From positions 1 to 53,697 of the IMG/VR virus record IMGVR_UViG_3300037125_000089: a stretch of 53,697 bases of DNA. One strand, given 5' to 3'. A program made the position numbers and the translations under genes. The notes under the pieces were generated by a model. The model worked only from the letters and a program-made list of their open reading frames with translations, was not told the DNA's origin and did no database searches. This DNA comes from a virus. Taxonomy: Duplodnaviria; Caudoviricetes. This document shows positions 6,090-53,697 of the stretch, piece by piece. How positions within the stretch are numbered: the first letter of the stretch is position 1; every line of letters begins with the position of its first letter.

Positions 6090-6188
6090 CTGATTTTAGT
6101 TGCAAGTTTCAAGTTGTCAAGTTGCATGTAGTTGAAAAAACAGGGGTAAATAAAGTATTAAGGGCCAAATTAATATTCCTAATCTATA

Positions 6189-14995: not shown

Positions 14996-16057
14996 ATGAA
15001 AAGGATTACCAGTATCATTTGTTTTTTTATAATCATTTTGTTTCAAACTATTATTTCACAAAATGTTGAGAATTCTAATTTCTCTACTACTTCAGTTCAG
15101 GGGGGAAACGATGTGCTTGGTAGACCCTTATTAGAGGGAACATTGAATCCAGAAGTTGTTTCTTCCAGCAATGTAGAGGTTACAGATTTAACAGCTTATA
15201 TGTTCTTCAAGGATGCCTTCGATTCAAGCATCCCGGCGTTTAGTACACAAACACCAACAGTTACTTATAGTGTAGAGGGGAATAATATAGTATTTGAAAC
15301 ATATGGTTCTATAGGTAGTACACCTTGGGAATCAAAGCTCGGTGTAAATCTTTATGTACATTATAATGAAAATGGTGTAAATAAAACGAAGACGTTATCT
15401 CATGGACTATTTGGCCCATTGAATACGCGACCAGTTCCTTTTAAGCGCGCAATTTCCGGTGGATGTACTGGAGAATGTTCAGAACAAGTTTCCATATCTT
15501 GGGATCAAGGTTGGGATGCTGAATTTGTTAAACTTATAATTAAGAACAAGGATAGCGGAGAAGTACTTGTGAATAATGATGATGATCCATTCTGGACTTA
15601 TACGGGATATTTCGATAGAGACGACATAGATAGGATTGAAGTACAAGTCGGCGTTGGTAATAGACGCTATGGTACTGTTTGGTCGAATAAATATGTTTAT
15701 GATATCGCTCCTTGCTATGATTTAGCGAATATAGATATTAATTCAGTCTCCTATAATGCAACCAAGAACATGGTGAATTTTTCTCTGTACTTTTCTTATC
15801 CGTGCAGTGCTACGAGCAGGTCATGGAAAGTTAAAAGATCTTCAAGCGCAGATATAACAGGGACTTGGACAACTGTAGCATTAGGAACTATCAATGATGT
15901 TTATTGGACTGCAAAGGATTCGCAGCCTCCATCAGGACTGTGGTATTACAGACTATTCTGTACTTATACAGACGCCTGCGGTAGTGTTAGAAATCCATAT
16001 AGCAGTGCAAAATCATGTACTGTAAGTAGTGGCACAAATGGTAAAATATTGCCGTGA
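14996..16057 (+). CDS. Secreted beta-rich protein (moron-like) with possible Ig/Fn3-like domains
   Basis: Signal peptide MKRITSIICFFIIILFQTIIS|Q; VSISWD and WKVKRS...W...D......WYYRL Fn3-like pattern; several Cys. Confidence 0.75.
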   Translation: MKRITSIICFFIIILFQTIISQNVENSNFSTTSVQGGNDVLGRPLLEGTLNPEVVSSSNVEVTDLTAYMFFKDAFDSSIPAFSTQTPTVTYSVEGNNIVFETYGSIGSTPWESKLGVNLYVHYNENGVNKTKTLSHGLFGPLNTRPVPFKRAISGGCTGECSEQVSISWDQGWDAEFVKLIIKNKDSGEVLVNNDDDPFWTYTGYFDRDDIDRIEVQVGVGNRRYGTVWSNKYVYDIAPCYDLANIDINSVSYNATKNMVNFSLYFSYPCSATSRSWKVKRSSSADITGTWTTVALGTINDVYWTAKDSQPPSGLWYYRLFCTYTDACGSVRNPYSSAKSCTVSSGTNGKILP

Positions 16058-33259: not shown

Positions 33260-33766
33260 ATGAAATTATTCTATTTTTTTATTTTAATAATACTAATACC
33301 ACAGTTTTTAACAGCGCAGTTTGCAAAACCCAAAAGCTTAACTAAACACTACGAACTTAGAAAGTATGAACAAGACGTTAGAGTAAATGCAGTTGAATTA
33401 AATGATGATAAAGATAAGCTTGATTCGCTGATACATGCTTTAACAGCGCAAACTGATCCCAAACAATTACAATTTATTGAATGTAAAGATACTTCTATTG
33501 TAGTAGACACTACATTACTGCTTTTGTCATTATCAGATAATATGAGCGGCCAAGGACAATTTACAGGAACTTCTGAAATTGACAGTGTTGGTATTGCCGC
33601 ATTAGATAGCTTGGATATTGTACTTGCAACACCATATACAGAAAGTGTAAATGTTAATGACTATTTAAGTGTTTATATCAAGGGGAATTATTTATACGTT
33701 AGAAGACCAGCAGGCGGCACAACAGACCTTAAGTATAATTGGATTTGGATAAGGAAATATCAATGA
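33260..33766 (+). CDS. Signal-peptide-bearing tail-fibre-like protein
   Basis: MKLFYFFILIILIPQFLTA|Q followed by LTKHYELRK...ELNDDKDKLDSLI, resembling a tail-fibre N-terminal anchor. Confidence 0.65.
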   Translation: MKLFYFFILIILIPQFLTAQFAKPKSLTKHYELRKYEQDVRVNAVELNDDKDKLDSLIHALTAQTDPKQLQFIECKDTSIVVDTTLLLLSLSDNMSGQGQFTGTSEIDSVGIAALDSLDIVLATPYTESVNVNDYLSVYIKGNYLYVRRPAGGTTDLKYNWIWIRKYQ

Positions 33767-38983: not shown

Positions 38984-41900
38984 TTGACAAGTTACTTGAA
39001 AAGAAGAAAATTCAAACAAATAGATTTTGATAAGTATTTCTCGCAGGAGATAGTTGATAGTAGTTCCTCCTTTGATAAATCTGTAGATGTAATGAATGCA
39101 CCTCCTGAAGATGATTTTTTTTTATCGACTATAAATAACCTTCATTCAAAAAAAAAAGATGACCGCCAAAGAATTAAGTTAAAAGATAAAGAAGAAAAGC
39201 TATTCCAAGAATTTTGGAAATCTAACCCTAATGTTCAGGCATGGAAAAAGAATTTAGGCAATCTAAATAAATCTCCAGATGATGAACTTGATAAATATGA
39301 CTATAGAAAAGCATGGCAAGCCGGCGATGAACCTCAAATAAATCCTGTTGATAATCTTTATCATTGGGGGAGTATAGGAAAAGATGAAGATCATCCAACT
39401 GCTTGGAAGCAGAAATATTTTGAACAGACAGGTTTAAACCCGGATGAGTTGTTATTTAATAAAAACAAAAACATTAAACCACCGTTATTTGATACGGCTA
39501 TTCAAGAAACAACAAAACAGCCGGCATTATTAGCTGATGATATTACCGAACCAAGAAAGCCTTTTCAACCTTCTATTCAACAACATGAATTAAACAGAAT
39601 ACCTGAAGATGATATTGTTAATAATATCAATTTAATCGACAAGCAGTTGCCAATCTTAAAAGCACAGTTTGAAAAGGCTGATGAAATTAATAAATCTGAA
39701 TTAGCACAAAAGTATAATTCTTTGATAGATCAAAGAAATAAGCTTGTTGAAAATTATTATAAAATATTTCCCGGGCAAAAATATTTGGCCAAAGGTGTTT
39801 TGGAAGCTGTTAATCTTCAAAATATAATTAGCCCTCTTAAACAGATACAACGAACGCCAAAACCTTTAACCGCAAATGAAGAGTACATTCCTAAAAAAAG
39901 TAGTTTAGAAATAATACCAAAAGGTAAAGACCCATTATTTGGTTTGGAATATAAGGGTTTACGAATTCCGCTAAATACCCCGGGCGGAAGGTTAATATCA
40001 TCATTTGTACAAGGCGCCGCAGCAATACCGGAAGGTGTATTCGGCGCTGCAGAGTATTTGGGGGACCAGTTTAATTTCAAAGATGTTAAAGGTGTATCAC
40101 GGAAAACCGCAAAAAATATTAATAGATGGGTAAGGAGTATTGCACCGGAGAATCCTAATTTTGTAGAGGAACTAGCATCAGGAGCCGGTTCGATGGCAAT
40201 ATTTTTACCGTTTGGAATAGGCGCATCAACAGTAGGCCGTTTGTTGGGAAGTACTCCTAAGATAGCTAATCTGTTTGGTGTAGGAGCTGCAACATTTCTT
40301 GAATCAGCTACAGAAGCTGGCCAGGTATATAACGAAAGTAAAAGTGAAGCAGCAGCAGAGAAAACATTTCTTGCAAATATGGTTTTAATAGGCGTGACTA
40401 ATAAGTTCGGTATTTTTGCAGACAGGGTACCTGGATTAAAGAAAATGCTGCTATCTACGCCTTTGGAAGGACTACAGGAAGCCGGCCAGGAAATAATACA
40501 GGCAAAAGCACAAGGAAAAGAACCGGATTGGAACAATGTAATTAAAAGCGCTCAAATAGGTACTATTATAGGCGGCGGTGCAAGTTTTGTGGATACTTCC
40601 ACAAGAGAAAAACCAATTGATGATATACGTGGTAAGAAAATTCCTATTGAATTTGATCCAAAACTTAATGAGGAAATAAATCAAAGAATTGAGGGTTTTG
40701 GTTTAACACCGGAAACAGGACTAAATCAATATGTATTGGATTTGTTATCACCAAAGGAAGCTCAAATAGATATAACTCCGGATAAGTTAACAGATGAGGT
40801 GTTTGGTAAACAAGATAAAAGTGAAAAGGTAAAAGTAAAAAGTAATGAACAAAAAAGAAAAGAAGTTGATGTTGAAGATTTTGTAAGAAAAGCAAACCGG
40901 TTTCAAACTGAAGATATTCCGGGATTAACGGCTGATTTTGATTTGAAGAATATCCACCAGCCAATCGGCAAGACTGGTGAATCCGGGACCAGGAAGTCGG
41001 AAGCAGAAAAGATTTTGGAAAAGGGTAAAGATGTAGAATACAAGAAAATACCGAATATGTTTACACCGGCTCAAGGCGAAACGATATTTAATGAGAACGG
41101 GCAATGGTATAGAGTATATGAATCAGGTACCAGTGCAGAAATGTATGTTCCACCGGAAGAACTTGATGTTAAAATGAAAATAAGTCCAAAAGAAGCTTAT
41201 GATTCATTCAATTTTATGAATAAAAATCTTGCCAAACTTGATTTATTCTTGTCTTCAAAACAAAATGAAAATATTAAAGAAAAAGAACCGAAATCATATT
41301 TGGAAATGCCAAGTTATGAAGATTTTTTAAAAATGTCAGTTGGTGATGTACAGGATTTTGAATTGAATAGATATGAAGAAATGCAATCAAAATTGCAACC
41401 AATTGATGAAAGGATTAAAAATGAAAAAGAAAATCTGAATAATTATAAGGGTAGAAGCAAAGTTAATCAAGGTAAAAGAAAAAAAATTAAAAGTAATATT
41501 AATGAATTAAATGAACAGAAATCCAAAATAAAAGATGAATATGAAAGTAAAGCATTAAATTTTTCATTGGAACTTAGAGAAAGAATATCAGAAAAAGCCA
41601 TAGAGGAAAAAGTTGATTTACCTGAAGATGAAATCTATCAATTGGTAGATGATGTTCTGGTTGCATTGGATCCCCGTTATGGTAAATCTGATTTAACAGT
41701 AGATGAATTAATTTCTGATACGATTGCAGATTATAAGGAGAAAGAAGATAGTAGAAAGAAGACAGATTCAAGTGATAAGTTAAAAGATAGAACTATAGAA
41801 AAACCATCTAAACAAACATTCGAAGAATCTATCCCTTCTCAAAAAACAATTATTGAACAAATAACCGATGAAACAAATGGTAGATATGAAATTGATATTG

Positions 41901-44900
41901 TTGACGGTAAATATAAAGCTATAGATCAAGCATCGGGTAACCCGGTTAGTATTGGAGGAAATGTAACGGATTCCGATGAGTTAATAAAAATACTTAAGGC
42001 TCATGCAAAAAGAAATCCTGAAGCAAACTATGGTTTAAAAAAAGTAGAAGAAAGTGAAGATAGGAGTTCCTCCTTCGATAAATCTACGGCGGAAAGGAAA
42101 GAGACTGATGAAGAAAAGCCTTCAGATGTTGAAGCTTCGGAGGTTATTAATGTTGATGAGATTGAACCTAATGAAAGTATTGATATAGATAAACTTGAAT
42201 CTGAAATAGCTTATAATAAGGGAGTTGTTAAAGAATTAGAATCAAAAATCAAGAATCAAGAATTAAGAAAAACTAATGCTGATGATTTTATTAAAAAAGA
42301 ATATGAAAATATTAAGAATCGAGGAATTTTAACCGATGTAGATAAAATTTCAAATAGAATTTTTAAGAAATCTAAAAAGCAGTATCCAGATAAATCTAAA
42401 GACTATATAAAAATATTTGTTATTGAACAGGAAATTCAAAACGTTAAAAGCCGATCTAAACGGGGGAAGTTGAAAAAGCAACTTCAAGAATTAAGAAGTT
42501 CCTCAGAAAAAGGTGATGAAGGATTAACTACTACTTTTACTCCAGCACAATATTTGAGTGATGTTCCGACACCTAACATAATAAAGGAAGCTACTGCAAA
42601 ATTAGGCGGAATAGATAAATTACAGGAAGCATTTGAAAAAGCTAATAATGATGAGCTGGCAAATTTAGAAAAGGAAAAAGGAACATTGTTAGAATCTTTT
42701 GCACGTCATTATCTTGCAGAGGAAGCTGTGAAAAATATAAAGATTGAAGAAAAGGGAAGTGTTTCAGACATATCAAAGAATTTTAATAAACAGTTGGATG
42801 AATATGTATCCGGTAAGTTAAGAAGCGATGTTATTTTTAATCTTGGAAAACCTTCGAAAGTGCTAAAAAAAACGGGAGTCCCGAATTTAGAAATTTCTTT
42901 AACTCAAAAGGTAATAAAAACCAAAACAGGAAAGCATAATTATCCGGTAGAATCGCTAAAAGATTTACCCGATAGAATAAATGATCCGATAATGGTATTT
43001 CCGTCAAAAACGCAACCAAATTCTAAGGTTGTTCTTACCGGAATAAAATATAAGAACCGCAATTTTGTTGTAGCTTTAAAATTAGATGAGACAGCTTATA
43101 GAGGTAGAAAAGCAATACAGGTAAATGATATAAAAAGTATTTATCCAAAGGATTTTGAAAAAATTATTAACTGGATAAAGGAAGGGAATGTAGATTATGT
43201 AAATAAAAAGAAAGGTCTCAAATGGTTTGAGGACTCAGCGGGCTCCAATTACCCGCAGCGTCAAACCATTCAAAACCTTATTTCGAATATAGCAGATAAA
43301 TTCGAAAAGTCAAGCGGAAAAGATGTTGGGAAGAAAGAGGGTGCGCAAGAAAAAAAAGATTTGCAAGTTACTGAAAAAAGTTTAAGTTTACATAATGAGG
43401 AACAAAGTGATGAAACTAAGTCAAGAAATATCAAAGAAGATACCGACAGAGGACAAGAATTACCTCATGAAAGTTCTGAATCAGGGGGAATATCTGGAAC
43501 TGATAACGAAGGAAAACAGGTTGACAAAGGAAGAAAAGTTGATCAGAAAGAAGTTGATAAAGGTTTACGAAAATCTGAATCAGACATTGAGCGAAGTAGC
43601 AGCACATCTAAATTACCCACCGCAACCAAGTCAGTGGAAGGACAGTCAACCGTTAGTAGAGATGCTGGAGATATTTCCGAACCTTCACAAAAGTCTATGG
43701 TATCAGAATCAACTGAGCCAGGTGACAGGGATGTAGGTGTAAGGGAGTCCTCCTACGCCAAGGCTTCGGAGGATGCTAATTATGATTTACGCAATAAAGA
43801 ACCTATAAGACTTACCAAAAGCCAACGCAGAAAGATAAACGAAAAAGTACGCGAAATTCTTCAATCAAAAAAGGCAGGTGAATTATCTGATGAAGACCGC
43901 GAAATTTTACGTCAATACACCGGTGAAGGAGGTTTATCATCCGGGGAAGGTAAAGGCGCCCTTAACCAGCATTACACAGATTACCCTGTAATTAAATCAA
44001 TTTTTGACGCACTTGATAAGTCAGGATTTGATTATAAAAATGTATTAGAACCGGCAGCGGGTTCCGGTAATTTTGTAGGAATGAAACCGGATAAAAATTG
44101 GACTACGGTAGATATTGATAAAACCAACCATGATGTAACTAAATATTTATACCCGAAAGGAACACATTATAATTTATCTTATGAGCAGTTTAAAGATACC
44201 GGTTATGATTTAGTTATTTCTAATGTACCTTTTAGCGAGGAAAGAGGCGCCGGTAAATTAAATATTAGACCGGATATTAAAGCACTTCATGATTTTTATT
44301 TTATCCATTCATTGGACCGTGTAAAACCAAACGGTTTGATTGTTTTTATTACTTCAAAGGGTACAATGGATAAGGTTAATCAGCAGATTAGAAATGAAAT
44401 ATTAAGTAAGGCCGACTTTATAACAGCATACCGTTTACCAGGAGGTACATTCGAAAAGAACGCACATACAGATGTAATAACCGATATAATTGTGCTGCAG
44501 AAAAGACCGGAAGGATATGAAACTAAAAATGCCGATAAGAATTATATGTTTTCTCAATCCGATAAAGTACTATTTGTAGATGGTGGATTTGTAGGATCAA
44601 ATGACGGGGTGTTTGTTAATATGTTTTATCAGAATTTTCCTGAGAAGATATTAGGCAAACCGGAAATGGGTAAAAATAAGTTATACGGCGGGAAGCTTAA
44701 TCTTAATGTTACGGGTGAACCGGATTTATCAAAGATTAAAATTGAATATGAGCCTTACCGGTTAAAAGAAAAGGAGAAAGGGAGAAAAGGAGAGATTGAA
44801 AAATATTCACGAACTGAGAAGATACCCGATAGGATGCAGGAATTTGAATCGTGGGCAAGTGAAAACGGAACTAAATACAGGATAAGCAGTGATCCGCGGT

Positions 44901-47900
44901 TCAAAGAAAATATTGCGATTAAACCAAATGAAAATAGTGTCTATCATAGAGATTATATCCAGGAATTTAGCGATGTAGAATTAAAAGCAAAAGCTTATAT
45001 AGAACTTCCATTGAATGATAAAAATAGAAATAAAATTATCGGTTTGTATAATCTAAAACAGGTTGCTGATGAAATTCAAAGTAATAAAAAATTCGGTTAT
45101 AAAGAAAAAGTTGAATCGATAATTAAAGAATACCGGGAAAGATTCAAAGTCCATCCTAAGAATGACAAAAAATTAAAAAATTTCTTTAAGGAATATAATG
45201 AAGAATCATTGTTTCATGAGTTATCTTCTTTCTTTACGAAAGACTGGAAGCCTGAATCTGTATTTACAAAGCAGGTAAGATTTGAAAAAAGCGGCGAACT
45301 GGAAATTAATGAAAAATCAACTTTAGCAGAAAAAGCATTATTTAACGAAAATATACACGGTGTAATTAACTTAAAATCATCTAAGTATTTAAGTGAAAAT
45401 GACTTAGTTTCTTTACTTGAACAAGGATATTCAATAATTGAAGAAAGCAAAGTACAAAACGATGTACTTTATTATTCCGGTAACGTTTATAAAAAAATTG
45501 AAGAAGCAGAAGAACTTAAACATAATGTTAATGATGAAGTTTTGGTAGAAAAGCTCAATCAACAGATTGAAGAATTAGAAAATATAAAACCGGAAATAAA
45601 AACCATTGAGGATATTGATATTAAAGGGAATGAATCATGGTTTAAGAATTTTATAAATAAAGTATTCCCCGGATGGATTGAAAATTACAGTGATAAATCG
45701 GACCGTATTCTTATTACTTCAGGATACGGTAAAATTTATGATAATTATTTGAATAACAATCAATTGGTTTCTTTAGAGGAAAAGGATTCACAAGGAAATG
45801 TTAGAAAATTATCAGAGAATGAAATAAAAGCAAGAATTGTAGAGGCAGAGGAAAAAGTAAGGGAAATAAAGGAAGAAATAAAAGATAAGATTAGATCAGA
45901 CCATGAATTACTTGAACAAATTCAGTTTGAATACAATAGAAAATATAAAAATTATGTTAAGCCGGATTATACAAAAGCATCTTATTTAATTGATGATGTT
46001 ATATCTGAATTACCAAAGAAAACACCGAACGGGCAAGATTTTTCCTTAAGAAAGAACCAGATTGACTGGGTTGTTAAAGCACTATATGAAGGCAAAGGTA
46101 TAAATGCCCATGATGTAGGCGGAGGAAAAACTTTTGCAGCAATTACCCTGGCCAGGGTATTAAAGAAAAAAGGAATCGCCAAAAAGCCTGTATTTGTTGT
46201 ACCGGCAAAAACAATAAGGAAGTGGGAAAGGGATATAAAATTTTTATTTCCCAATGCAAAAATATGTAACCTTGGTAATCTTTCTAAAAATAAAAGAAAA
46301 GAAAAATTATACGAGGTTGCGAATAATGAATTTGATTATGTATTGATTTCCCATGAAGGTTTCGGACAGATAAAATTAAATGCCGATGATGAATTAAAAT
46401 ATTTTAATAAAGTAGTTGATGAGAATATAACAGACCCGGAAAAAGTAGGAAGATCAAAAGAATTAGAATTAGAAAAAATAGCAAGATTCAGAGAAATTAT
46501 TAAAAGGTCAAAACGAGATGAGAATTTAACATTTGATAAGTTAGGATTTGATTCAATAGTAGTAGATGAAGCCCATGCATATAAAAATATAGGTATTAAC
46601 GGAGATCTGGTTAAATTTGGAGCCGGTATAGCTTTCGGTGTTAATGTAAATACAAGAAAACTAAGAAAATCAGAAGTTAGTAAGGAGGAATCAGAAGGGA
46701 AATATATTATTACAGATAGCAAAGGAAGTAAGTTTGTACAAAATGTTAATTTAAAATCTGCAAGAAGTTATGATTTCAGATTTAAGTCACAATTTATTAC
46801 GGAAAAGAATAACGGGAAAAATGTTTTTTTATTAACAGCAACGCCTACCCCGAATAAACCAATGGAAGTATTCACGATGTTAAGGCATCTGGATACCGAA
46901 ATACTTCAAGAATACGGAATTCATACAGACAGGGATTTTGCAAATACATTTATGAAGTTCGGTTCAGTATCAAATCCTGTTAAGAAAAAAGGTTATGATA
47001 ACATTGTTAAAGCCATAACAAATGCACAGGAATTAAGAGCTATTCTTGACAGGTATGTTGATAAACTTTCTATGGAACAAATGCCGTGGATAAAATTACC
47101 TGAAGCAAAGGTTAAAACTCATTACATGAAGGCTTCGGATGCAGCAAAAGATATAGCTGATGATTTACGTTCGAGGATTAATAATTTGAAAGGAAGCTGG
47201 AAAATAGATCAAGGTGATGATACAATGCTGGGGATTTATACTACGGGCCGGGCCGGAAGTATTGATCCGAGACTATATGAAAGTACACATGCAGGCGTTC
47301 AGATATTTAACCGTGATATTGACACCGAAACAGATAAAATTGAGTTAGCAGAATCGCAGATTTATGATACATATAAAAAGAATAAGAATTCGGGGCAGAT
47401 TGTATTTCTGGATCATGCGGGCCATACATCAACACACCTTGATGAAAATATTCATTCCGAGATTAAAAAGGATTTAGTTAAGAAAGGTATTATACCGAAA
47501 CAAATTGCAATAATATCGGGACAGGAAATTACTAATCCGCAAACAGGTAAAGAAAGAAAACTCTCCGGAGACAGATTAAATTCAGCCAAACAGGAAATAG
47601 TTGATTTATACAACCAGGGAGAGATTCGAGTAATTATCGGTACAACAAAAAGTGCAGGCGAAGGGATGGATATCCAGGTAAAGACAACAGATATATATCA
47701 TCTGGATATACCTTATACACCGGGAGAATTTCAGCAAAGGAACGGAAGAGGTGTCCGTTACGGAAATGAAAATGATACAGTACGTATTCATTACTATTTT
47801 ATGCGGGGGACATTTGATGAGCTGTCGTTTAATATAGTTGCACGTAAACGAGGGTGGAACGAAGCAATCTGGGATAAGGATGCAGTAAACGAAATTGATA

Positions 47901-50900
47901 CAGTTGCCGAAATGCTGGGAGGCATGCCTTCAGAAGAAGAAATTCAATTAGCAATGGAAGAAGACCCTGTTAAAAGACGTTTGCTTGAACTGGAAATTAA
48001 AAGAAGTCATTTATCAAATGATGTTGTTGCAGCGCGTGACGGTGTTCGTAGAGCCGAAAGAAAAATAGATTTTCTAAACATAAAAAAAAGAAGTTCTCAA
48101 CGTGAATTAAATGAAGATCAGAAGGAAAGAAATTCCATAGCTGAAAAGTTAAGAGATAAATCTGTTGATGACGATACGAAAAATAAATTACGTAAAAAAA
48201 GAAAAACTCTGGATTCTTTTATTTCTAAAAACAAACGATTTATTGATAATTATCCGAAAAGAAATAACTCTCTTGAGAAGCAGTTAGAACATGCTAAGAA
48301 AGTTCTTGAAGAAACTGAAAATGATATTACTTCTTTTATTGAAAAGTATATTCCAAATCAAAATGATATTTGGGGAGTGATTGAATTATCAGAGAGTGAA
48401 CTTAAGGAATTAGAGGCAACAGAACGGAGTCAGGATACCGTAGAAGATTTGGAGGAAGCAGAGAACAAAAAAAGAATCGTAAATGATGATAAATATTATG
48501 AAGCAAAACAAAATATAATAGATAAACATAATAGTCTAAGTTTTGGTTTTGATCCGACTTTGATTAAAGATTATCTGGTTATAGGCGCCTATCATGTTGA
48601 GAATCTGATTAGAAAAGGTGTTAAGCCGGAATCATTGAAAAGGTTATTTAGAGCTGAGATGTATAAGGATTTTGGCAAGAAAATCAGAAAGTTTGTTAAT
48701 AAGATTTGGCGAAGTTTATGGAAGGAGTTCGGAAAGCAGTTATTAACTATTGCAGAAAAAAATCCACTGTATAAAGGTTTTACTAAGTTAGCCGAGGGAC
48801 CGTTGTTTGATGATGAAGGGAATTTTATTGAAGATAAAAGTAAAAAGGAAAAAGATATAAGTGAGGCGGATAGGTCGGCCGGTAAATTATCAGAAAGGGA
48901 GAAGATTGAAAGGGCAATTTATTCCGGGGAAAAAGAAAGTAAGATTGATAAAATAATTGACAGATATAAAGAAAAATTAGTTTTCGGAAAAAATAAACGA
49001 GAAACACATTTTACTTCTACATTGATTAAGCAGCGTATCAAAGATTTACAGCGCGGTTATAAGTTAGGTGAAATTGATAAGGAACGCGAATTACAGAAAA
49101 TTAAACAAATGATTTCAACTTATGTTAGGAAGAATCTTCCTAATGATGAATATAAGAAAAGAGACATTACCAAAATCTTGACCAAAATTGTAAGAGCTAA
49201 AAATGCTAAAGGCGTAGAGGAAGCTTTTAATAAGATTGATGAGATAATTGATAATAAAAATGATGAAAATATTCGAAATAAATTTCTTGATTTGTTAAAA
49301 CAGCATAAGCCGACTACAAAAAGCGGTCGTGAAACCGGTACTATATTAACTGCAGATCATTATAAAACCCTTGATATGATTAGAGAGGTTATTCATCTTG
49401 ATTCGGATGAAGTACAGGAAAGAACTGAAAGAATATTGGAGTCTGTTTGTGATGGTATTGAATTAACCGAGGATCAGAACCGTGAAATGTTTGTACTGGG
49501 TAACTTCGGGGATTTTGAAAATTTAGGAGGACAGAGATTAAAAGAAGTATATGAAATTTTGCGTGATTTTATTGCTGAAGGAAAATTTGAATACTGGCAA
49601 CGGGAAACTTCAAGGATACAGGAAAATGAAAGGTTAAGAGATGAAGCTATTGATGCCATTTCCGGAGGTGAAGGTTTATTAACCCAAGAACAGGCAAGAG
49701 ATAAAGGGGTTGATACTGGTAAATTTTCAATCGATAAATATGATTCATATAATCAATCTTTTGAATGGCTGCTAGATAAGCTGCAGAAATTAGATAAAGA
49801 TTCCGGAACATTGGAGGGACCGTTAAATAAACAATTTGTCCCTAAAATATTAAATGCTAGGAATAATGAAAATAAAGGACTGCGTGATAATTATGAATTG
49901 TTCAAAAATAAATTAGAAGAAATTTATAACAAATACGGGAAAGAATTAGCTAATGAATTAAAAGATAATACCGAAAGGAAGAAAACGGGTATTATTATTA
50001 AACAAGGTTCGAAAGAAATAGAACTTGAGTTAAGTCAAAATGAAGCTTATAAAAAATATCTTGAAGCACAAGATCCTACGCAGTGGGAAACATTGGATAA
50101 AATGGGCTATACTTCAGATGTAATAAATCAAATAGAAAAGTGGCTGAAGCCGGAAGTTAAAAAATGGGCTGATTGGCAGATAGAAGAATTTTATCCGGAA
50201 TATTATCATTCGGTAAATGAAGTTTATAGAAATAGGTTTTATGCAGATTTGCCTTATAACCAATTTTACACACCTATTTTCAGAGATTTCCAGGGAGGGG
50301 AAGCAGATAATCAATTGCTAAAAGAAAAAAGCCACTATGCTACGGTGTTAAACGGACATTTAAAAACAAGAAGGGAGAATACTCTAACTTTAAAACTTGT
50401 TGACGGTGATTCGGTATTAGCACAGCATATAATTGAAATGGAGCATTTTAAGGCCTGGTCTGAAGTAATAAGACAGTTAAGGTCTGTGTTTGCCCATAAA
50501 GATGTAAGAAATACAATTAGGCAATATCATGGAAAAGCTAACCTTGATATACTAACTAAGTTTATTGATGATTTTGCGCGGGGCGGTGTTGACAGGTCCT
50601 TAACTTTGAATGTTCTCGATAAATTCAGGGCTAATTTTACCAAAGCAGTGTTAGGAGTAAATGTAACCGTATTCTTCAAACAGTTAACATCCATACCGGC
50701 CTACGCAATGGAAATTCCTGTTAAAAATTTTGTACAGGGTATAAGTGATTTTGTTAGGAACCCGGCAAAAGCAATAAGAATATTATCTAAATCCGAAATG
50801 CTAAAATCAAGATACAATGTAGGCTGGGAACGTGATGTAATTCTTGCAATGAAGCAATCAACATCAAAACAATTGGCAGGAACAAAATCAATAACCGATG

Positions 50901-51910
50901 CTTTGATGTTAACTACACGTGCGGGGGATAAAGCAGCAATATTAATAGGAGGCTGGGGAGTATACAAATATCATTATGATAAAGCGATAAAAGAAGGTAA
51001 AGGAGCAATAGAAGCAAGTAAAATTGCTATGGAGCAGTTTGAATTAACAACAAAACGAGCACAGCAAGCAGGTGATGTAGAGGATTTGGCCGATATACAG
51101 AGACAGGGAAGCTGGGCCAAATTATTTACAATGTTTATTACTGCACCAAACCAGTATTATAGAAGTGTATCGGGCGGTTTCAGAAATTTAATTCACGGTA
51201 GAGGAAATAAAGTTGAGAATATAAAAAGAATAGCCATTGCACATTTTATTCTTCCTGCTTTGTTCCAGTATGTTGCAAGCGGTTTTCCCGGGTTATTCAG
51301 TGAATGGGATGATAAAGATACTTTGAGACAATTTAGAGCTTTGGGATTAGGTTCCTTAAACGGGTTATTAATAGCAGGTGATTTATTAGAAGGATTGTTT
51401 GATGCTTTGATTGGTGATTATAATTATTCATTTGATGCTTTACCGATTCAATCTGCAGTGAAGTATTTAAGAACAGGTTTAGTAAAAATCCATAATTTGA
51501 TACGTGACGATACCTATACATTTGATGAATTCGTAAGTATTATAGATCAACTGCTATCCGGTATAAGTAAGTTTCACGGAGTACCTTACGACCCTGTAAA
51601 AAAGTTAGGTGAAGGATTAAAGAAAACAATCAAAGGAGAATCCGAAAGTATAATGGAATTATTCGGGTATTCCGATTATGCGCTTGGTGATGAAAAATTA
51701 AGTAAAGAATTGAGAGCAATTAGGAACCAGGAACGAATAGTTCGAAGGTTAAAAAAAATATTTAATAATTCCAATAGATATAATGATAAAAAGAAATATG
51801 AAAGTGAAAAGAAAAAACTTGATGATATGAGGAAGAAATCAAAAGATTATCAACAATTAAAAAAAGAAAGAACCGGAAGTTCAAAAATAACCCCGATTAT
51901 ATGGAATTAA
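38984..51910 (+). CDS. Giant polyvalent DarB-like internal virion protein (PBECR-like nuclease, N6-adenine methyltransferase, SNF2 helicase); start uncertain
   Basis: YTGEGGL, EPAAGSG, NVPF (44222); AHDVGGGKT (46106), DEAH (46565), TATP, QRNGRGVRYG; MuF-C/PBECR-like segment at about 42780-43230. Confidence 0.9.
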   Translation: MTSYLKRRKFKQIDFDKYFSQEIVDSSSSFDKSVDVMNAPPEDDFFLSTINNLHSKKKDDRQRIKLKDKEEKLFQEFWKSNPNVQAWKKNLGNLNKSPDDELDKYDYRKAWQAGDEPQINPVDNLYHWGSIGKDEDHPTAWKQKYFEQTGLNPDELLFNKNKNIKPPLFDTAIQETTKQPALLADDITEPRKPFQPSIQQHELNRIPEDDIVNNINLIDKQLPILKAQFEKADEINKSELAQKYNSLIDQRNKLVENYYKIFPGQKYLAKGVLEAVNLQNIISPLKQIQRTPKPLTANEEYIPKKSSLEIIPKGKDPLFGLEYKGLRIPLNTPGGRLISSFVQGAAAIPEGVFGAAEYLGDQFNFKDVKGVSRKTAKNINRWVRSIAPENPNFVEELASGAGSMAIFLPFGIGASTVGRLLGSTPKIANLFGVGAATFLESATEAGQVYNESKSEAAAEKTFLANMVLIGVTNKFGIFADRVPGLKKMLLSTPLEGLQEAGQEIIQAKAQGKEPDWNNVIKSAQIGTIIGGGASFVDTSTREKPIDDIRGKKIPIEFDPKLNEEINQRIEGFGLTPETGLNQYVLDLLSPKEAQIDITPDKLTDEVFGKQDKSEKVKVKSNEQKRKEVDVEDFVRKANRFQTEDIPGLTADFDLKNIHQPIGKTGESGTRKSEAEKILEKGKDVEYKKIPNMFTPAQGETIFNENGQWYRVYESGTSAEMYVPPEELDVKMKISPKEAYDSFNFMNKNLAKLDLFLSSKQNENIKEKEPKSYLEMPSYEDFLKMSVGDVQDFELNRYEEMQSKLQPIDERIKNEKENLNNYKGRSKVNQGKRKKIKSNINELNEQKSKIKDEYESKALNFSLELRERISEKAIEEKVDLPEDEIYQLVDDVLVALDPRYGKSDLTVDELISDTIADYKEKEDSRKKTDSSDKLKDRTIEKPSKQTFEESIPSQKTIIEQITDETNGRYEIDIVDGKYKAIDQASGNPVSIGGNVTDSDELIKILKAHAKRNPEANYGLKKVEESEDRSSSFDKSTAERKETDEEKPSDVEASEVINVDEIEPNESIDIDKLESEIAYNKGVVKELESKIKNQELRKTNADDFIKKEYENIKNRGILTDVDKISNRIFKKSKKQYPDKSKDYIKIFVIEQEIQNVKSRSKRGKLKKQLQELRSSSEKGDEGLTTTFTPAQYLSDVPTPNIIKEATAKLGGIDKLQEAFEKANNDELANLEKEKGTLLESFARHYLAEEAVKNIKIEEKGSVSDISKNFNKQLDEYVSGKLRSDVIFNLGKPSKVLKKTGVPNLEISLTQKVIKTKTGKHNYPVESLKDLPDRINDPIMVFPSKTQPNSKVVLTGIKYKNRNFVVALKLDETAYRGRKAIQVNDIKSIYPKDFEKIINWIKEGNVDYVNKKKGLKWFEDSAGSNYPQRQTIQNLISNIADKFEKSSGKDVGKKEGAQEKKDLQVTEKSLSLHNEEQSDETKSRNIKEDTDRGQELPHESSESGGISGTDNEGKQVDKGRKVDQKEVDKGLRKSESDIERSSSTSKLPTATKSVEGQSTVSRDAGDISEPSQKSMVSESTEPGDRDVGVRESSYAKASEDANYDLRNKEPIRLTKSQRRKINEKVREILQSKKAGELSDEDREILRQYTGEGGLSSGEGKGALNQHYTDYPVIKSIFDALDKSGFDYKNVLEPAAGSGNFVGMKPDKNWTTVDIDKTNHDVTKYLYPKGTHYNLSYEQFKDTGYDLVISNVPFSEERGAGKLNIRPDIKALHDFYFIHSLDRVKPNGLIVFITSKGTMDKVNQQIRNEILSKADFITAYRLPGGTFEKNAHTDVITDIIVLQKRPEGYETKNADKNYMFSQSDKVLFVDGGFVGSNDGVFVNMFYQNFPEKILGKPEMGKNKLYGGKLNLNVTGEPDLSKIKIEYEPYRLKEKEKGRKGEIEKYSRTEKIPDRMQEFESWASENGTKYRISSDPRFKENIAIKPNENSVYHRDYIQEFSDVELKAKAYIELPLNDKNRNKIIGLYNLKQVADEIQSNKKFGYKEKVESIIKEYRERFKVHPKNDKKLKNFFKEYNEESLFHELSSFFTKDWKPESVFTKQVRFEKSGELEINEKSTLAEKALFNENIHGVINLKSSKYLSENDLVSLLEQGYSIIEESKVQNDVLYYSGNVYKKIEEAEELKHNVNDEVLVEKLNQQIEELENIKPEIKTIEDIDIKGNESWFKNFINKVFPGWIENYSDKSDRILITSGYGKIYDNYLNNNQLVSLEEKDSQGNVRKLSENEIKARIVEAEEKVREIKEEIKDKIRSDHELLEQIQFEYNRKYKNYVKPDYTKASYLIDDVISELPKKTPNGQDFSLRKNQIDWVVKALYEGKGINAHDVGGGKTFAAITLARVLKKKGIAKKPVFVVPAKTIRKWERDIKFLFPNAKICNLGNLSKNKRKEKLYEVANNEFDYVLISHEGFGQIKLNADDELKYFNKVVDENITDPEKVGRSKELELEKIARFREIIKRSKRDENLTFDKLGFDSIVVDEAHAYKNIGINGDLVKFGAGIAFGVNVNTRKLRKSEVSKEESEGKYIITDSKGSKFVQNVNLKSARSYDFRFKSQFITEKNNGKNVFLLTATPTPNKPMEVFTMLRHLDTEILQEYGIHTDRDFANTFMKFGSVSNPVKKKGYDNIVKAITNAQELRAILDRYVDKLSMEQMPWIKLPEAKVKTHYMKASDAAKDIADDLRSRINNLKGSWKIDQGDDTMLGIYTTGRAGSIDPRLYESTHAGVQIFNRDIDTETDKIELAESQIYDTYKKNKNSGQIVFLDHAGHTSTHLDENIHSEIKKDLVKKGIIPKQIAIISGQEITNPQTGKERKLSGDRLNSAKQEIVDLYNQGEIRVIIGTTKSAGEGMDIQVKTTDIYHLDIPYTPGEFQQRNGRGVRYGNENDTVRIHYYFMRGTFDELSFNIVARKRGWNEAIWDKDAVNEIDTVAEMLGGMPSEEEIQLAMEEDPVKRRLLELEIKRSHLSNDVVAARDGVRRAERKIDFLNIKKRSSQRELNEDQKERNSIAEKLRDKSVDDDTKNKLRKKRKTLDSFISKNKRFIDNYPKRNNSLEKQLEHAKKVLEETENDITSFIEKYIPNQNDIWGVIELSESELKELEATERSQDTVEDLEEAENKKRIVNDDKYYEAKQNIIDKHNSLSFGFDPTLIKDYLVIGAYHVENLIRKGVKPESLKRLFRAEMYKDFGKKIRKFVNKIWRSLWKEFGKQLLTIAEKNPLYKGFTKLAEGPLFDDEGNFIEDKSKKEKDISEADRSAGKLSEREKIERAIYSGEKESKIDKIIDRYKEKLVFGKNKRETHFTSTLIKQRIKDLQRGYKLGEIDKERELQKIKQMISTYVRKNLPNDEYKKRDITKILTKIVRAKNAKGVEEAFNKIDEIIDNKNDENIRNKFLDLLKQHKPTTKSGRETGTILTADHYKTLDMIREVIHLDSDEVQERTERILESVCDGIELTEDQNREMFVLGNFGDFENLGGQRLKEVYEILRDFIAEGKFEYWQRETSRIQENERLRDEAIDAISGGEGLLTQEQARDKGVDTGKFSIDKYDSYNQSFEWLLDKLQKLDKDSGTLEGPLNKQFVPKILNARNNENKGLRDNYELFKNKLEEIYNKYGKELANELKDNTERKKTGIIIKQGSKEIELELSQNEAYKKYLEAQDPTQWETLDKMGYTSDVINQIEKWLKPEVKKWADWQIEEFYPEYYHSVNEVYRNRFYADLPYNQFYTPIFRDFQGGEADNQLLKEKSHYATVLNGHLKTRRENTLTLKLVDGDSVLAQHIIEMEHFKAWSEVIRQLRSVFAHKDVRNTIRQYHGKANLDILTKFIDDFARGGVDRSLTLNVLDKFRANFTKAVLGVNVTVFFKQLTSIPAYAMEIPVKNFVQGISDFVRNPAKAIRILSKSEMLKSRYNVGWERDVILAMKQSTSKQLAGTKSITDALMLTTRAGDKAAILIGGWGVYKYHYDKAIKEGKGAIEASKIAMEQFELTTKRAQQAGDVEDLADIQRQGSWAKLFTMFITAPNQYYRSVSGGFRNLIHGRGNKVENIKRIAIAHFILPALFQYVASGFPGLFSEWDDKDTLRQFRALGLGSLNGLLIAGDLLEGLFDALIGDYNYSFDALPIQSAVKYLRTGLVKIHNLIRDDTYTFDEFVSIIDQLLSGISKFHGVPYDPVKKLGEGLKKTIKGESESIMELFGYSDYALGDEKLSKELRAIRNQERIVRRLKKIFNNSNRYNDKKKYESEKKKLDDMRKKSKDYQQLKKERTGSSKITPIIWN
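43748..43773. repeat. REP-like palindrome inside the giant CDS (relatives at 42067-42094 and 39064-39082)
   Basis: tcctcc-tac-gcc-aa-ggc-ttc-ggagga. Confidence 0.7.
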
Positions 51911-51942
51911 TTGCATCAAGCAATTAAAAAAACTACTTTTCC
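51880..51942 (+). promoter_or_regulatory. Putative late promoter upstream of the lysis module
   Basis: TTCAAAAATAACCCC-N12-TTAATTG; TTGCAT-17 bp-TACTTT. Confidence 0.65.
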
Positions 51943-51965
51943 TAGTATATAAACAATCATTTTTT

Positions 51966-52349
51966 ATGTGTGAATTAACTCCTAAAGGTTATAAAATGAA
52001 GGACGGAACCATTATTGGATGGGATACAAACCTAGAGGATATTTCACAACATCATTTTCAAGAATTACAAGAAGCAGGTTTATGGGAATCATTTATAAAT
52101 AGGAGAAATTTTCATTCGATAAGAAATGAGATGAAGAATTTGTTTTCTTCTATACAAGACTCATTAACGGATATAAGAGATAACATGAATAAATTTTTAA
52201 CTGCTGATGAAATTGATTCAAAAATAGAAAAAGCGATTGATAAAGCACCCAGTGAACATATTAGCAAAATAGCAACATTAATTAAAAATTTAGCAATAAT
52301 TCTAGGCACTGTTAGCGGGTGGATATATGTTTTAATTCAAAATCAATAG
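51966..52349 (+). CDS. Coiled-coil protein with one C-terminal TM helix (holin-like)
   Basis: LAIILGTVSGWIYVLI at the C-terminus; lysis-region position. Confidence 0.6.
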   Translation: MCELTPKGYKMKDGTIIGWDTNLEDISQHHFQELQEAGLWESFINRRNFHSIRNEMKNLFSSIQDSLTDIRDNMNKFLTADEIDSKIEKAIDKAPSEHISKIATLIKNLAIILGTVSGWIYVLIQNQ

Positions 52350-52402
52350 ATAAATTATCTTTCTTTTAAAAGAAACACATCACAAATCAAAGGGCCAACA
52401 TT

Positions 52403-52531
52403 ATGATAAAAAAAATTTTTTTCCCATTTCTGATTATTCTATTCCTGTTTATCCTTTCTACAAATTTCAGTGCATCAATCAATGGGGGGAATGATGTACG
52501 AGGAAGACCGTTATTACTACTAAGGTCTTAA
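52403..52531 (+). CDS. 42-aa putative secreted peptide (not in the ORF track)
   Basis: MIKKIFFPFLIILFLFILSTNFSASINGGNDVRGRPLLLLRS; same CAAAGGGCCAA-N4-ATG context as the ASCH gene; motif shared with the protein at 14996. Confidence 0.75.
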   Translation: MIKKIFFPFLIILFLFILSTNFSASINGGNDVRGRPLLLLRS

Positions 52532-52575
52532 AAACGAAAAAAATAAATAAACGTTAATAACAAAAGGAGAATAGT

Positions 52576-52920
52576 ATGGACACCTTAACAAAGGTAAATG
52601 AAGTTTTAAAAGGTTCGATACAGGGCACAAATGAGCTTGGTGATTTAGTTGACTTTGTATATGAATCTTTTGAAGAACTACAAGACGGATTTCAAATCAC
52701 GGATGGCATAGATTTAATAAATGCTGTCATTAAAGCTGTAAGCGGTAGTAAAGAAGCGGCGGCGCAAGTTTTTGATTTACAAGATAGTGAAATAAACGAG
52801 CTTGTAGAAAGAAGTGATAATTTCACGTTAGGTGAGCTTGCCAATGAAGCACGCCAGATAGTGAAATTTATTTTAACAGGATTTCAAACCTATTCTGTAT
52901 TTGCCGGTAAACTTGGTTAA
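52576..52920 (+). CDS. Hypothetical acidic helical protein in the lysis module
   Basis: AGGAG RBS; DGFQITD motif. Confidence 0.75.
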   Translation: MDTLTKVNEVLKGSIQGTNELGDLVDFVYESFEELQDGFQITDGIDLINAVIKAVSGSKEAAAQVFDLQDSEINELVERSDNFTLGELANEARQIVKFILTGFQTYSVFAGKLG

Positions 52921-52923
52921 TAA

Positions 52924-53064
52924 ATGAAAAAAAAGAAGTGGTATAAAAGAAAAGAATTATGGGGCGCCGTGTTGACTACAGTCAGCACGGGGCTAACTAT
53001 GTTTAATCAACATACTACAGCATATAAAATTGGTATTATGCTGGGTGTAGGTTTATCGCCCTAA
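52924..53064 (+). CDS. Small holin-like membrane protein, 46 aa (not in the ORF track)
   Basis: MKKKKWYKRKELWGAVLTTVSTGLTMFNQHTTAYKIGIMLGVGLSP; KKWYK.K.LWG start typical of small holins; directly before the endolysin. Confidence 0.65.
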   Translation: MKKKKWYKRKELWGAVLTTVSTGLTMFNQHTTAYKIGIMLGVGLSP

Positions 53065-53082
53065 AAAAATAAATTTCACGAG

Positions 53083-53697
53083 GTGAAAATGTCAACAATC
53101 AATAGAGGGATAAGATTATCATTTCGGGAAATGTTTAGTCAACCATTCGGAATGATGATAATATTGATGAATAATCAATTGGCATTAAATATATATGCCT
53201 GTGCAGGACAGGAAAGTTCATTTTATACCGGTTGTGTAGGTGATAACGGTAAAAGTTACGGCCTATTCCAGTTTTATACTTCAGTGCACAAAGAAAAAGA
53301 TATTTCAAAATATATAAATAAATCAATCCGGTTTTTTAAATTAGAATTTTTGGAAAACTTGAACTATAGCGAATGGGTACATTCAGTTGGTTATAAAATG
53401 GTTTATCCAAAAATTGAAGCAGATGAAATAAATATTGATGTGCAAATTGCTGCGTGGCTGGGATATATGATCGAAGAAAATTATATTTCTGAATTAGCAA
53501 ATATCTCGGTGTTTACAGATATTGTAAATTATCAAAAAGCTCAAAGATTCCATCCAGATCATATTGATACTTACCAAAAAAATACAGAAAAATATTACAA
53601 TATTGCAAAAGAAAAGTACGATAAATACTATTCCGAGTTAAAAAAAGTTGAATCATATCTTATAAAACCTTTCAAAATGAAAAGTACCCTGCAATAA
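53083..53697 (+). CDS. Lysozyme-like transglycosylase (probable endolysin)
   Basis: QESSF....VGDNGKSYGLFQF (catalytic ES plus GLFQ motif). Confidence 0.8.
   Translation: MKMSTINRGIRLSFREMFSQPFGMMIILMNNQLALNIYACAGQESSFYTGCVGDNGKSYGLFQFYTSVHKEKDISKYINKSIRFFKLEFLENLNYSEWVHSVGYKMVYPKIEADEINIDVQIAAWLGYMIEENYISELANISVFTDIVNYQKAQRFHPDHIDTYQKNTEKYYNIAKEKYDKYYSELKKVESYLIKPFKMKSTLQ

Follow-up and report, generated by a model that had tools for sequence, protein, structure and literature searches.

We analysed the 53,697-nucleotide virus record IMGVR_UViG_3300037125_000089 of IMG/VR (Duplodnaviria; Caudoviricetes), hereafter the window, and within it a 42-amino-acid (aa) open reading frame (ORF) near the right end that opens with a signal peptide and a short motif, GGNDVxGRPLL, also found at the start of a 353-aa secreted protein encoded at the other side of the window. 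The two reading frames are homologous, their homology ends abruptly, selection has acted at the level of the peptide, the motif is unique to this prophage, and in related loci the slot that holds the short ORF is either filled by a complete gene or empty. The reading that we favour, tentatively and with a little less than even confidence, is that the short ORF is the 5' remnant of an anciently diverged paralogue of the 353-aa protein, possibly still translated and exported. The window corresponds to C4:42946-96642 of a 6.76-Mb, 98.5%-complete genome in 244 contigs and is most of an integrated prophage of roughly 61 kb. From the source name of a protein in a same-family genome, together with its taxonomy, we infer that the host belongs to the Melioribacteraceae (Ignavibacteriota, FCB group).

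Two reading frames and one motif

Both ORFs had been described as starting with a signal-peptide-like N-terminus, and inspection agrees. The features of a Sec/signal peptidase I (SPase I) signal peptide (a positive n-region, an uncharged hydrophobic h-region of ~7-15 residues, a polar c-region and small residues at -1/-3) are present in the short ORF (MIKK, a 14-residue h-region and S-T-N-F-S-A) and in the long one (MKR, a 17-residue h-region and IIS before Q), as judged by inspection and a hydropathy filter. The 42-aa translation that had been quoted for the short ORF is correct, and the long ORF encodes a 353-aa protein that carries SNFSTTSVQGGNDVLGRPLLEG as claimed. Applied to the window, the hydropathy filter picks out three genuine + strand ORFs, starting at 14996, 33260 and 52403, along with a start internal to the terminase gene. 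The ORF at 33260-33766 (+, 168 aa), whose signal-peptide-like N-terminus ends in ...LTAQ and continues FAKPK, has no Pfam or NCBIfam match and is without the GGNDV motif. The Q-rule for signal cleavage is reported not to be valid across the entire FCB group, and we therefore draw no conclusion about a cleavage site from Q22.

Behind the signal peptide both ORFs continue NFS..GGNDVxGRPLL, with 10 of the 11 core residues identical. BLASTP aligns the short with the long sequence at 14/21 identities (E 2e-7), and in a tblastn search of the entire host genome with the 42-aa sequence no match other than the ORF itself ranks above the long gene (E 0.002 with composition statistics, 4e-5 without), in an alignment that spans residues 2-38 of the short ORF, that is, signal peptide and motif. 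A degenerate DNA pattern for GGNDVxGRP has two matches in the window and none in 100 shuffles of it.

The original prediction held that the peptide rather than the DNA is conserved, and this stands. The codon differences listed for it (gga/ggg, aac/aat, gtg/gta, ggt/gga and ccc/ccg, with tct/agt for Ser) are all correct, and the 17 base differences in the 19 aligned codons pile up at third positions (5/2/10 at codon positions 1/2/3). By the Nei-Gojobori method the proportions of synonymous and nonsynonymous differences (pS and pN) are 0.63 and 0.19 over the 19 codons (Fisher p 0.002) and 0.68 and 0.04 over the 11-codon core, a region chosen post hoc (Fisher p 0.0005); the pairwise ratio of nonsynonymous to synonymous divergence (dN/dS) falls well below 1. 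Synonymous sites are almost saturated, and the two copies are therefore old, with the peptide, not the DNA, conserved between them. Two sequences do not allow this selection to be placed on the branch of the short copy itself, and a recent truncation, whether of a paralogue maintained for long or of a homologue acquired by recombination, would give the same picture.

The homology breaks off after GRPLL, four codons (LLRS) before the stop of the short ORF, and beyond that point there is no DNA or protein similarity to the long gene in any frame. The short ORF thus matches a longer gene over the 5' end of the latter, ceases to match abruptly, and lacks the remainder. A fusion to the downstream 114-aa gene by readthrough or frameshifting was considered and rejected: the two ORFs lie in different frames, and in the frame of the 114-aa gene a stop stands 18 nt 5' of its ATG.

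In the history that we favour, GGNDVxGRPLL would form the opening strand-turn-strand of the mature domain in the orphan family to which the 353-aa protein belongs, preserved by purifying selection for as long as the two copies remained complete. A deletion or recombination joint just 5' of the mobile 114-aa gene would then have removed the body of the second copy, leaving its start context, its Sec-type signal peptide and ~20 mature residues, and letting the frame after the motif run through four unrelated codons into a stop. Since the frame ends four codons past the presumed strand-turn-strand element, it would encode only part of a domain. The stub may still be made and exported, because its start region and signal peptide are intact, and the product would be a short periplasmic or membrane peptide, presumably without a selected role.

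The start context of the short ORF was examined in the same way. An identical CAAAGGGCCAA-N4-ATG context had been reported for the ATG at 1338 and that at 52403, which is correct; the gene at 1338 had also been labelled ASCH, a label that finds no Pfam match at E <= 0.01, its only match being phrog_3193, of unknown function. The 9-mer AAGGGCCAA contained in the element has 13 copies in the 6.76-Mb genome, four of them in the ~61-kb prophage, where all are intergenic and on the + strand. A second element, ACAGGGGTAAAT, occurs within ~60 nt of three of the four prophage copies and is absent at the copy before the 42-aa ORF. A regulatory role in the phage, as promoter or operator, is probable for the AAGGGCCAA sites.

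The codon-usage score of the short ORF, -0.13 per codon, lies within the range of spurious ORFs (-0.20 +/- 0.19, n=76) and below all 641 real-gene windows (0.285 +/- 0.10), which is weak evidence because signal peptides score low, as does the N-terminus of the long gene (-0.05 over its first 46 codons). Searches with the 42-aa sequence returned no longer protein at E <= 10, no usable match in the ESM Atlas, and none in Pfam or PHROGs.

The slot beside the 114-aa gene

The 114-aa gene directly 3' of the short ORF anchors the slot in which the latter sits. It has homologues in seven other genomes of the host family (37-43% identity), so that the family is present in 8 of 166 host-family genomes, the host included; a search of 401 genomes across the phylum found it in three, again counting the host and all within the host family, and it is absent from IMG/VR. 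Compared with the window by BLASTP (E 1e-4), the seven related loci share no gene besides this one. The 114-aa gene is therefore a mobile module among otherwise unrelated phages, and its upstream edge a mosaic joint. The gene next to it usually encodes a small KK-rich membrane protein (L008-L014), and in one genome (G120) the homologue carries an N-terminal membrane region as a fusion (230 aa).

Immediately 5' of the 114-aa homologue, five of the seven loci, from four genera, carry a complete signal-peptide-like protein of 144-147 aa, two of the five being near-identical copies from one genus. In these Melioribacteraceae prophage-like loci the gene sits between an ORF of ~311-328 aa and the 114-aa homologue. 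The slot is empty in the remaining two loci, and in the window it holds the 42-aa ORF. The ~145-aa family has no Pfam match; its AlphaFold2 (AF2) model is all-beta at pLDDT 61, and a Foldseek search of this model against the PDB gave nothing at E <= 0.001.

The original prediction had itself raised the idea that the short ORF might be the 5' stub of a longer paralogue. That idea gains from the full-length signal-peptide gene found in this slot in most of the related loci, but the family of that gene has no significant homology to the 42-aa ORF, and tblastn with it against the window found nothing at E <= 1. A likeness of the motif to the F-S/T-G-V/I-I-S-G-G-D-T-L of the ~145-aa family, seen by eye, was dropped when neither hhalign nor hmmsearch supported it. 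The same two programs weakly pair the core of the ~145-aa family with the 353-aa protein at residues 251-330 (per-comparison E 0.05 and 0.003), no more than a suggestive link.

The motif, the long protein and their surroundings

A six-frame regular-expression search of the 244 contigs of the host genome, with four progressively looser patterns, found the motif only at the two prophage sites, and GGNDV alone gave two additional, unrelated matches. A generic host sorting tag, which the original prediction had named as a possible undoing, is thus not what the motif represents. Elsewhere, a pattern scan of IMG/VR gave four matches, none behind a signal peptide (two inside larger open frames, two in high-GC contexts unlike either ORF), and a scan of 185,579 species genomes, one per species, gave another four, all in non-coding frames of high-GC genomes. 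The original prediction had suggested looking for the short and long forms in other phage and FCB-group genomes; neither the short ORF nor another phage-like case of the motif appeared in IMG/VR, in the species genomes or in the Joint Genome Institute (JGI) metagenomes. A literature search for 'GGNDV' returned no relevant paper by title.

In JGI metagenome contigs the pattern matched 61 times, with a single match in a signal-peptide context (L034). About two-thirds of these matches (L022-L082) share the reading VVGGNDVPGRPF/L; their frame, frequently interrupted by stops, ends ...KFP or ...ELP and is probably the antisense of one widespread conserved gene, and frames of this VVGGNDVPGRPF type are recurring false positives for pattern scans of this kind. 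The one match in a signal-peptide context is a secreted Cupin_2 protein that carries VQGGNDVLGRPL behind its signal peptide, with 12 residues identical to the 353-aa protein and EGT.N a few residues later. It is 57% identical to the 353-aa protein over 30 residues (pairwise BLASTP E 7e-7) and reaches an HMMER E of 0.009 against the host genome, values that overstate the case because the locus was selected by the motif pattern. The stretch that bears the motif lies within the part alignable to the solved bicupin 2vqa (aligned text PLVSLGGNEL...), and in the cupin it is therefore built into a folded beta domain directly after the signal peptide, which agrees with the strand-turn-strand reading of the phage motif. 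The likeness may stem from convergence or chance, or from an N-terminal strand that is distantly homologous, and we regard this protein as a lead and not as independent support for the remnant reading.

The 353-aa protein is an orphan by every search made. It has no family match in Pfam or PHROGs, and in particular no Cupin match in Pfam; a word-indexed search of 5.8e9 clustered proteins returned only the protein itself, and a full HMMER search of 1.84e9 representatives returned itself and one other protein (P0003), rejected as a homologue after local phmmer showed its score to be the sum of many 3-4.5-bit repeat matches. No relatives were found in IMG/VR, none below E 0.04 in the 166 same-family genomes, and none at E <= 10 among PDB sequences. 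The original label of an Ig/Fn3-like protein draws some weak support from structure, in that the neighbours of its ESM Atlas model (pLDDT 0.71, pTM 0.42) are tandem Fn3 proteins at TM 0.39-0.50. A single-sequence AF2 model (pLDDT 44) is too poor for use; it places strands at residues 35-38 and 44-50, where pLDDT is ~40. The nearby gene that had been called a Mor-like activator has no family match.

The window encodes a replication O-like protein, the large terminase subunit, a portal, a major head protein and two DNA methylases, with all long ORFs on the + strand; host-like genes resume to the right of the prophage at C4:97320. Close relatives of the prophage were absent from the sets searched (IMG/VR, INPHARED, protein sets and the 166 same-family genomes), and INPHARED phages gave no match to the DNA at 51900-53697. 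An ORF of 4308 aa (38984-51910) makes up 24% of the window and lies directly 5' of a cluster of small genes, in which the short ORF, ~1.2 kb from the right end of the prophage, stands between a 127-aa ORF and the 114-aa gene (Table 1). This cluster had been called a lysis module. What speaks for that label are weak matches: the 46-aa ORF resembles holin phrog_34682 (E 1.8e-4) over residues 1-21, and the 204-aa ORF, which has no significant family match and only two marginal, stop-ridden matches in the host family, reaches Phage_lysozyme2 at E 0.082 and is a possible muramidase or transglycosylase. The label is plausible on these sequence matches. Rfam gave no match at E <= 1 in 51800-53697, and a scan of the prophage end region for promoters and terminators found no more than shuffled sequence does. 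Among sequencing runs matching the region no RNA run is listed; one run is the probable source of the sequence, and a second holds an identical 151-base piece of the 114-aa gene only, which does not reach the short ORF.

Table 1. Features discussed in the text. Coordinates are window positions unless a contig or locus is named.
Feature	Coordinates	Strand	Remark
42-aa ORF	52403..52531	+	MIKK n-region, 14-residue uncharged hydrophobic h-region, then TNFSASINGGNDVRGRPLLLLRS and stop
Core motif GGNDVRGRPLL, short ORF	52484..52516	+	11 codons; homology to long gene stops at 52516
353-aa secreted beta-rich orphan protein	14996..16057	+	signal peptide, then QNVENSNFSTTSVQGGNDVLGRPLLEG...
Core motif GGNDVLGRPLL, long gene	15101..15133	+	
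CAAAGGGCCAA element	52388..52398	+	4 nt 5' of short-ORF ATG; contains AAGGGCCAA
AAGGGCCAA prophage copies	1325-1333, 6160-6168, 52390-52398; C4:39614	+	C4:39614 lies 3.3 kb 5' of window
114-aa gene	52576..52920	+	directly 3' of short ORF; anchors slot
127-aa ORF	51966..52349	+	5' of short ORF; hydrophobic C-terminal segment
46-aa ORF	52924..53064	+	membrane-like
204-aa ORF	53083..53697	+	last gene before prophage right end
Integrase-like ORF	C4:35447-36715		outside window
~145-aa family genes	L009 1008-1442; L011 1008-1445; L012 1003-1443; L013 1003-1443; L014 730-1173		
Secreted Cupin_2 protein	L034 9164-9604		146 aa; 65%-GC metagenomic contig

Weighing the readings

In favour of a remnant stand the abrupt end of the homology with none of the gene body left, a position at a mosaic joint where most related loci carry a complete secreted-protein gene, a motif that probably belongs to a fold, and the want of a second example of the short form in the sets searched. 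Several observations weigh against reading the short ORF as a remnant. Long neutral drift would have erased the motif from a stub, and this reading therefore requires a truncation that is young compared with the split between the copies; the motif has been kept while synonymous sites became saturated (pS 0.63-0.68 against a core pN of 0.04), and the stop follows directly after it, as expected of a purpose-built peptide. The signal peptide has fully diverged in sequence from that of the long gene and nonetheless keeps a canonical form: its h-region is uncharged and the frame is free of stops. The start context is gene-like, being shared with the bona fide gene at 1338 and containing the phage-enriched 9-mer; a stub would inherit this context too, which therefore argues for expression, not for function. 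A longer paralogue bearing the motif was found at the slot nowhere in the sets searched, and the ~145-aa family that fills the slot in relatives pairs with the 42-aa ORF over the signal peptide only in hhalign (E 0.041, probability 1.3%) and scores a non-significant 1-5 bits against the 42-aa ORF or the motif in hmmsearch. No second copy of the short form turned up in the host genome, IMG/VR, the species genomes or the metagenomes, and there is hence no sign that it is conserved, yet this lack of conservation is itself uninformative because the prophage has no close relatives in those sets.

Some of the same observations are what a real mini-gene would leave behind, one whose free exported peptide of ~18-23 residues engages, through the motif, the envelope or periplasmic partner of the 353-aa protein as a competitor, decoy, timer or co-factor. 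We consider this unlikely while taking it seriously: the low dN/dS at saturated synonymous sites, the signal peptide that stayed intact, the stop just past the motif, the 11-nt start context identical to that of a real gene, with its phage-enriched element, and a motif specific to the phage and not to the host all fit. Against it stand a single occurrence in all of the sequence space searched, a codon-usage score in the non-coding range, and the lack of any partner candidate, with no tetratricopeptide repeat (TPR) or other peptide-binding family among the 19 window proteins scanned. Further, selection over two sequences is unassignable to the short branch, and truncation, too, would fit a slot that relatives fill with full-length genes for secreted proteins. 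An elaboration in which the phage would export one selected beta-hairpin motif on two carriers, a free ~20-residue peptide and, at its N-terminus, a secreted Fn3-like protein, with the free peptide competing for or priming the same envelope partner as a periplasmic decoy or timer of an undescribed kind in a diderm of the FCB group, is in our judgement quite improbable. We hold it more doubtful still that the short ORF encodes a small membrane-anchored lysis or exclusion protein, in the manner of an antiholin or holin modulator, with an uncleaved hydrophobic anchor, a basic periplasmic tail, and a motif shared through descent of an export module. The ORF does lie among small membrane-protein ORFs close to the right end of the prophage, adjoining the 46-aa ORF with its weak holin match, and its h-region is strongly hydrophobic; but the ~14 residues of that region are few for a transmembrane helix to be stable, assigning the module to lysis is itself tentative, there is no homology to PHROG or Pfam lysis families, and the conservation of a periplasmic motif would be left unexplained.

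As a signalling, lysis-timing or decoy system, which is how the short ORF was originally proposed, it finds no support: the host is a diderm, its genome has no C39 peptidase, no TPR receptor appears among the 19 window proteins scanned, and no relatives were found that conserve the short form. An arbitrium-like or other quorum peptide (an analogue of AimP), or a peptide with a double-glycine leader cut after GG, is very improbable to us. The 42-aa length and the layout of signal peptide and short tail recall AimP-type pre-pro-peptides, and GG precedes NDVRGRPLLLLRS. However, no receptor gene is adjacent, the upstream neighbours being the 127-aa and 4308-aa ORFs, and the absence of an AimR-type TPR receptor noted in the original prediction is borne out by Pfam, whose best TPR signal among the 19 proteins is TPR_25 in the 114-aa protein, at 13.8 bits against a cut-off of 27. 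A 2-kDa periplasmic peptide would also be a poor diffusible signal in a diderm, and neither model predicts the motif on a 353-aa protein as well. The consensus double-glycine leader is non-hydrophobic and ends in GG, whereas the leader here is hydrophobic and of Sec type, and Peptidase_C39 (PF03412) has no match in the 98.5%-complete host genome, with a control search positive in 7 of 14 genomes. Least credible of all is a chance resemblance of a spurious AT-rich ORF to the long gene. Frames of 42 codons are not rare at 32% GC (~4% of ATGs, by estimate), and the codon-usage score resembles that of non-coding sequence, but chance would have to account for the genome-wide tblastn match, a DNA pattern that shuffling never produced, equal spacing of the motif behind the signal peptide in both copies, and differences concentrated at third codon positions.

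If the remnant reading is true, the finding is an ordinary one: it documents a mosaic joint and an orphan secreted family in a prophage of an uncultured member of the Ignavibacteriota, and it carries the caution that a low pairwise dN/dS between a fragment and its parent is no proof that the fragment functions. If instead the peptide is produced and exerts an effect via the shared motif, a phage of a diderm would here encode a periplasmic ligand of a new type, which would also offer a handle on the partner of the 353-aa secreted protein.

Known systems resemble the short ORF to different degrees. The arbitrium peptide AimP of Bacillus phages is likewise encoded by a phage ORF of ~40 aa with a signal peptide and a short tail. 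The arbitrium peptide gene lies directly 3' of aimR, which encodes a TPR receptor of ~380 aa, within the lysogeny module, and the system works in a monoderm host with extracellular peptide processing and re-import by Opp, whereas the short ORF has no adjacent AimR-type receptor, lies outside a lysogeny module in a diderm host (Ignavibacteriota have a diderm envelope), and shares its motif with the head of a 353-aa secreted protein. Antiholins of the T4 RI type and other small lysis regulators are, like the predicted product, small exported or anchored proteins with putative holin and endolysin genes as neighbours; the short ORF resembles none of them in sequence or family, is far shorter than RI, and lies in a neighbourhood whose lysis role is putative. 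Unlike o-spanins and other lipoprotein lysis proteins, the 42-aa sequence contains no Cys and therefore no lipobox, so it is not a spanin-type lipoprotein. Secreted cupins (L034 and 2vqa) offer the parallel of VQGGNDVLGRPL behind a signal peptide, in a stretch that is part of the fold, but the 353-aa protein has Fn3-like structural neighbours in place of a Cupin match and L034 comes from a 65%-GC organism. Gene remnants at the mosaic joints of temperate phages differ from the short ORF in that the latter retains its start and signal peptide intact, along with a motif that was once under strong purifying selection, and that no full-length motif-bearing donor is known at the slot; they are like it in being 5' fragments with an abrupt end to the homology, beside a module shared with unrelated phages, in a slot that is variably filled among relatives, here in five of seven loci and empty in two.

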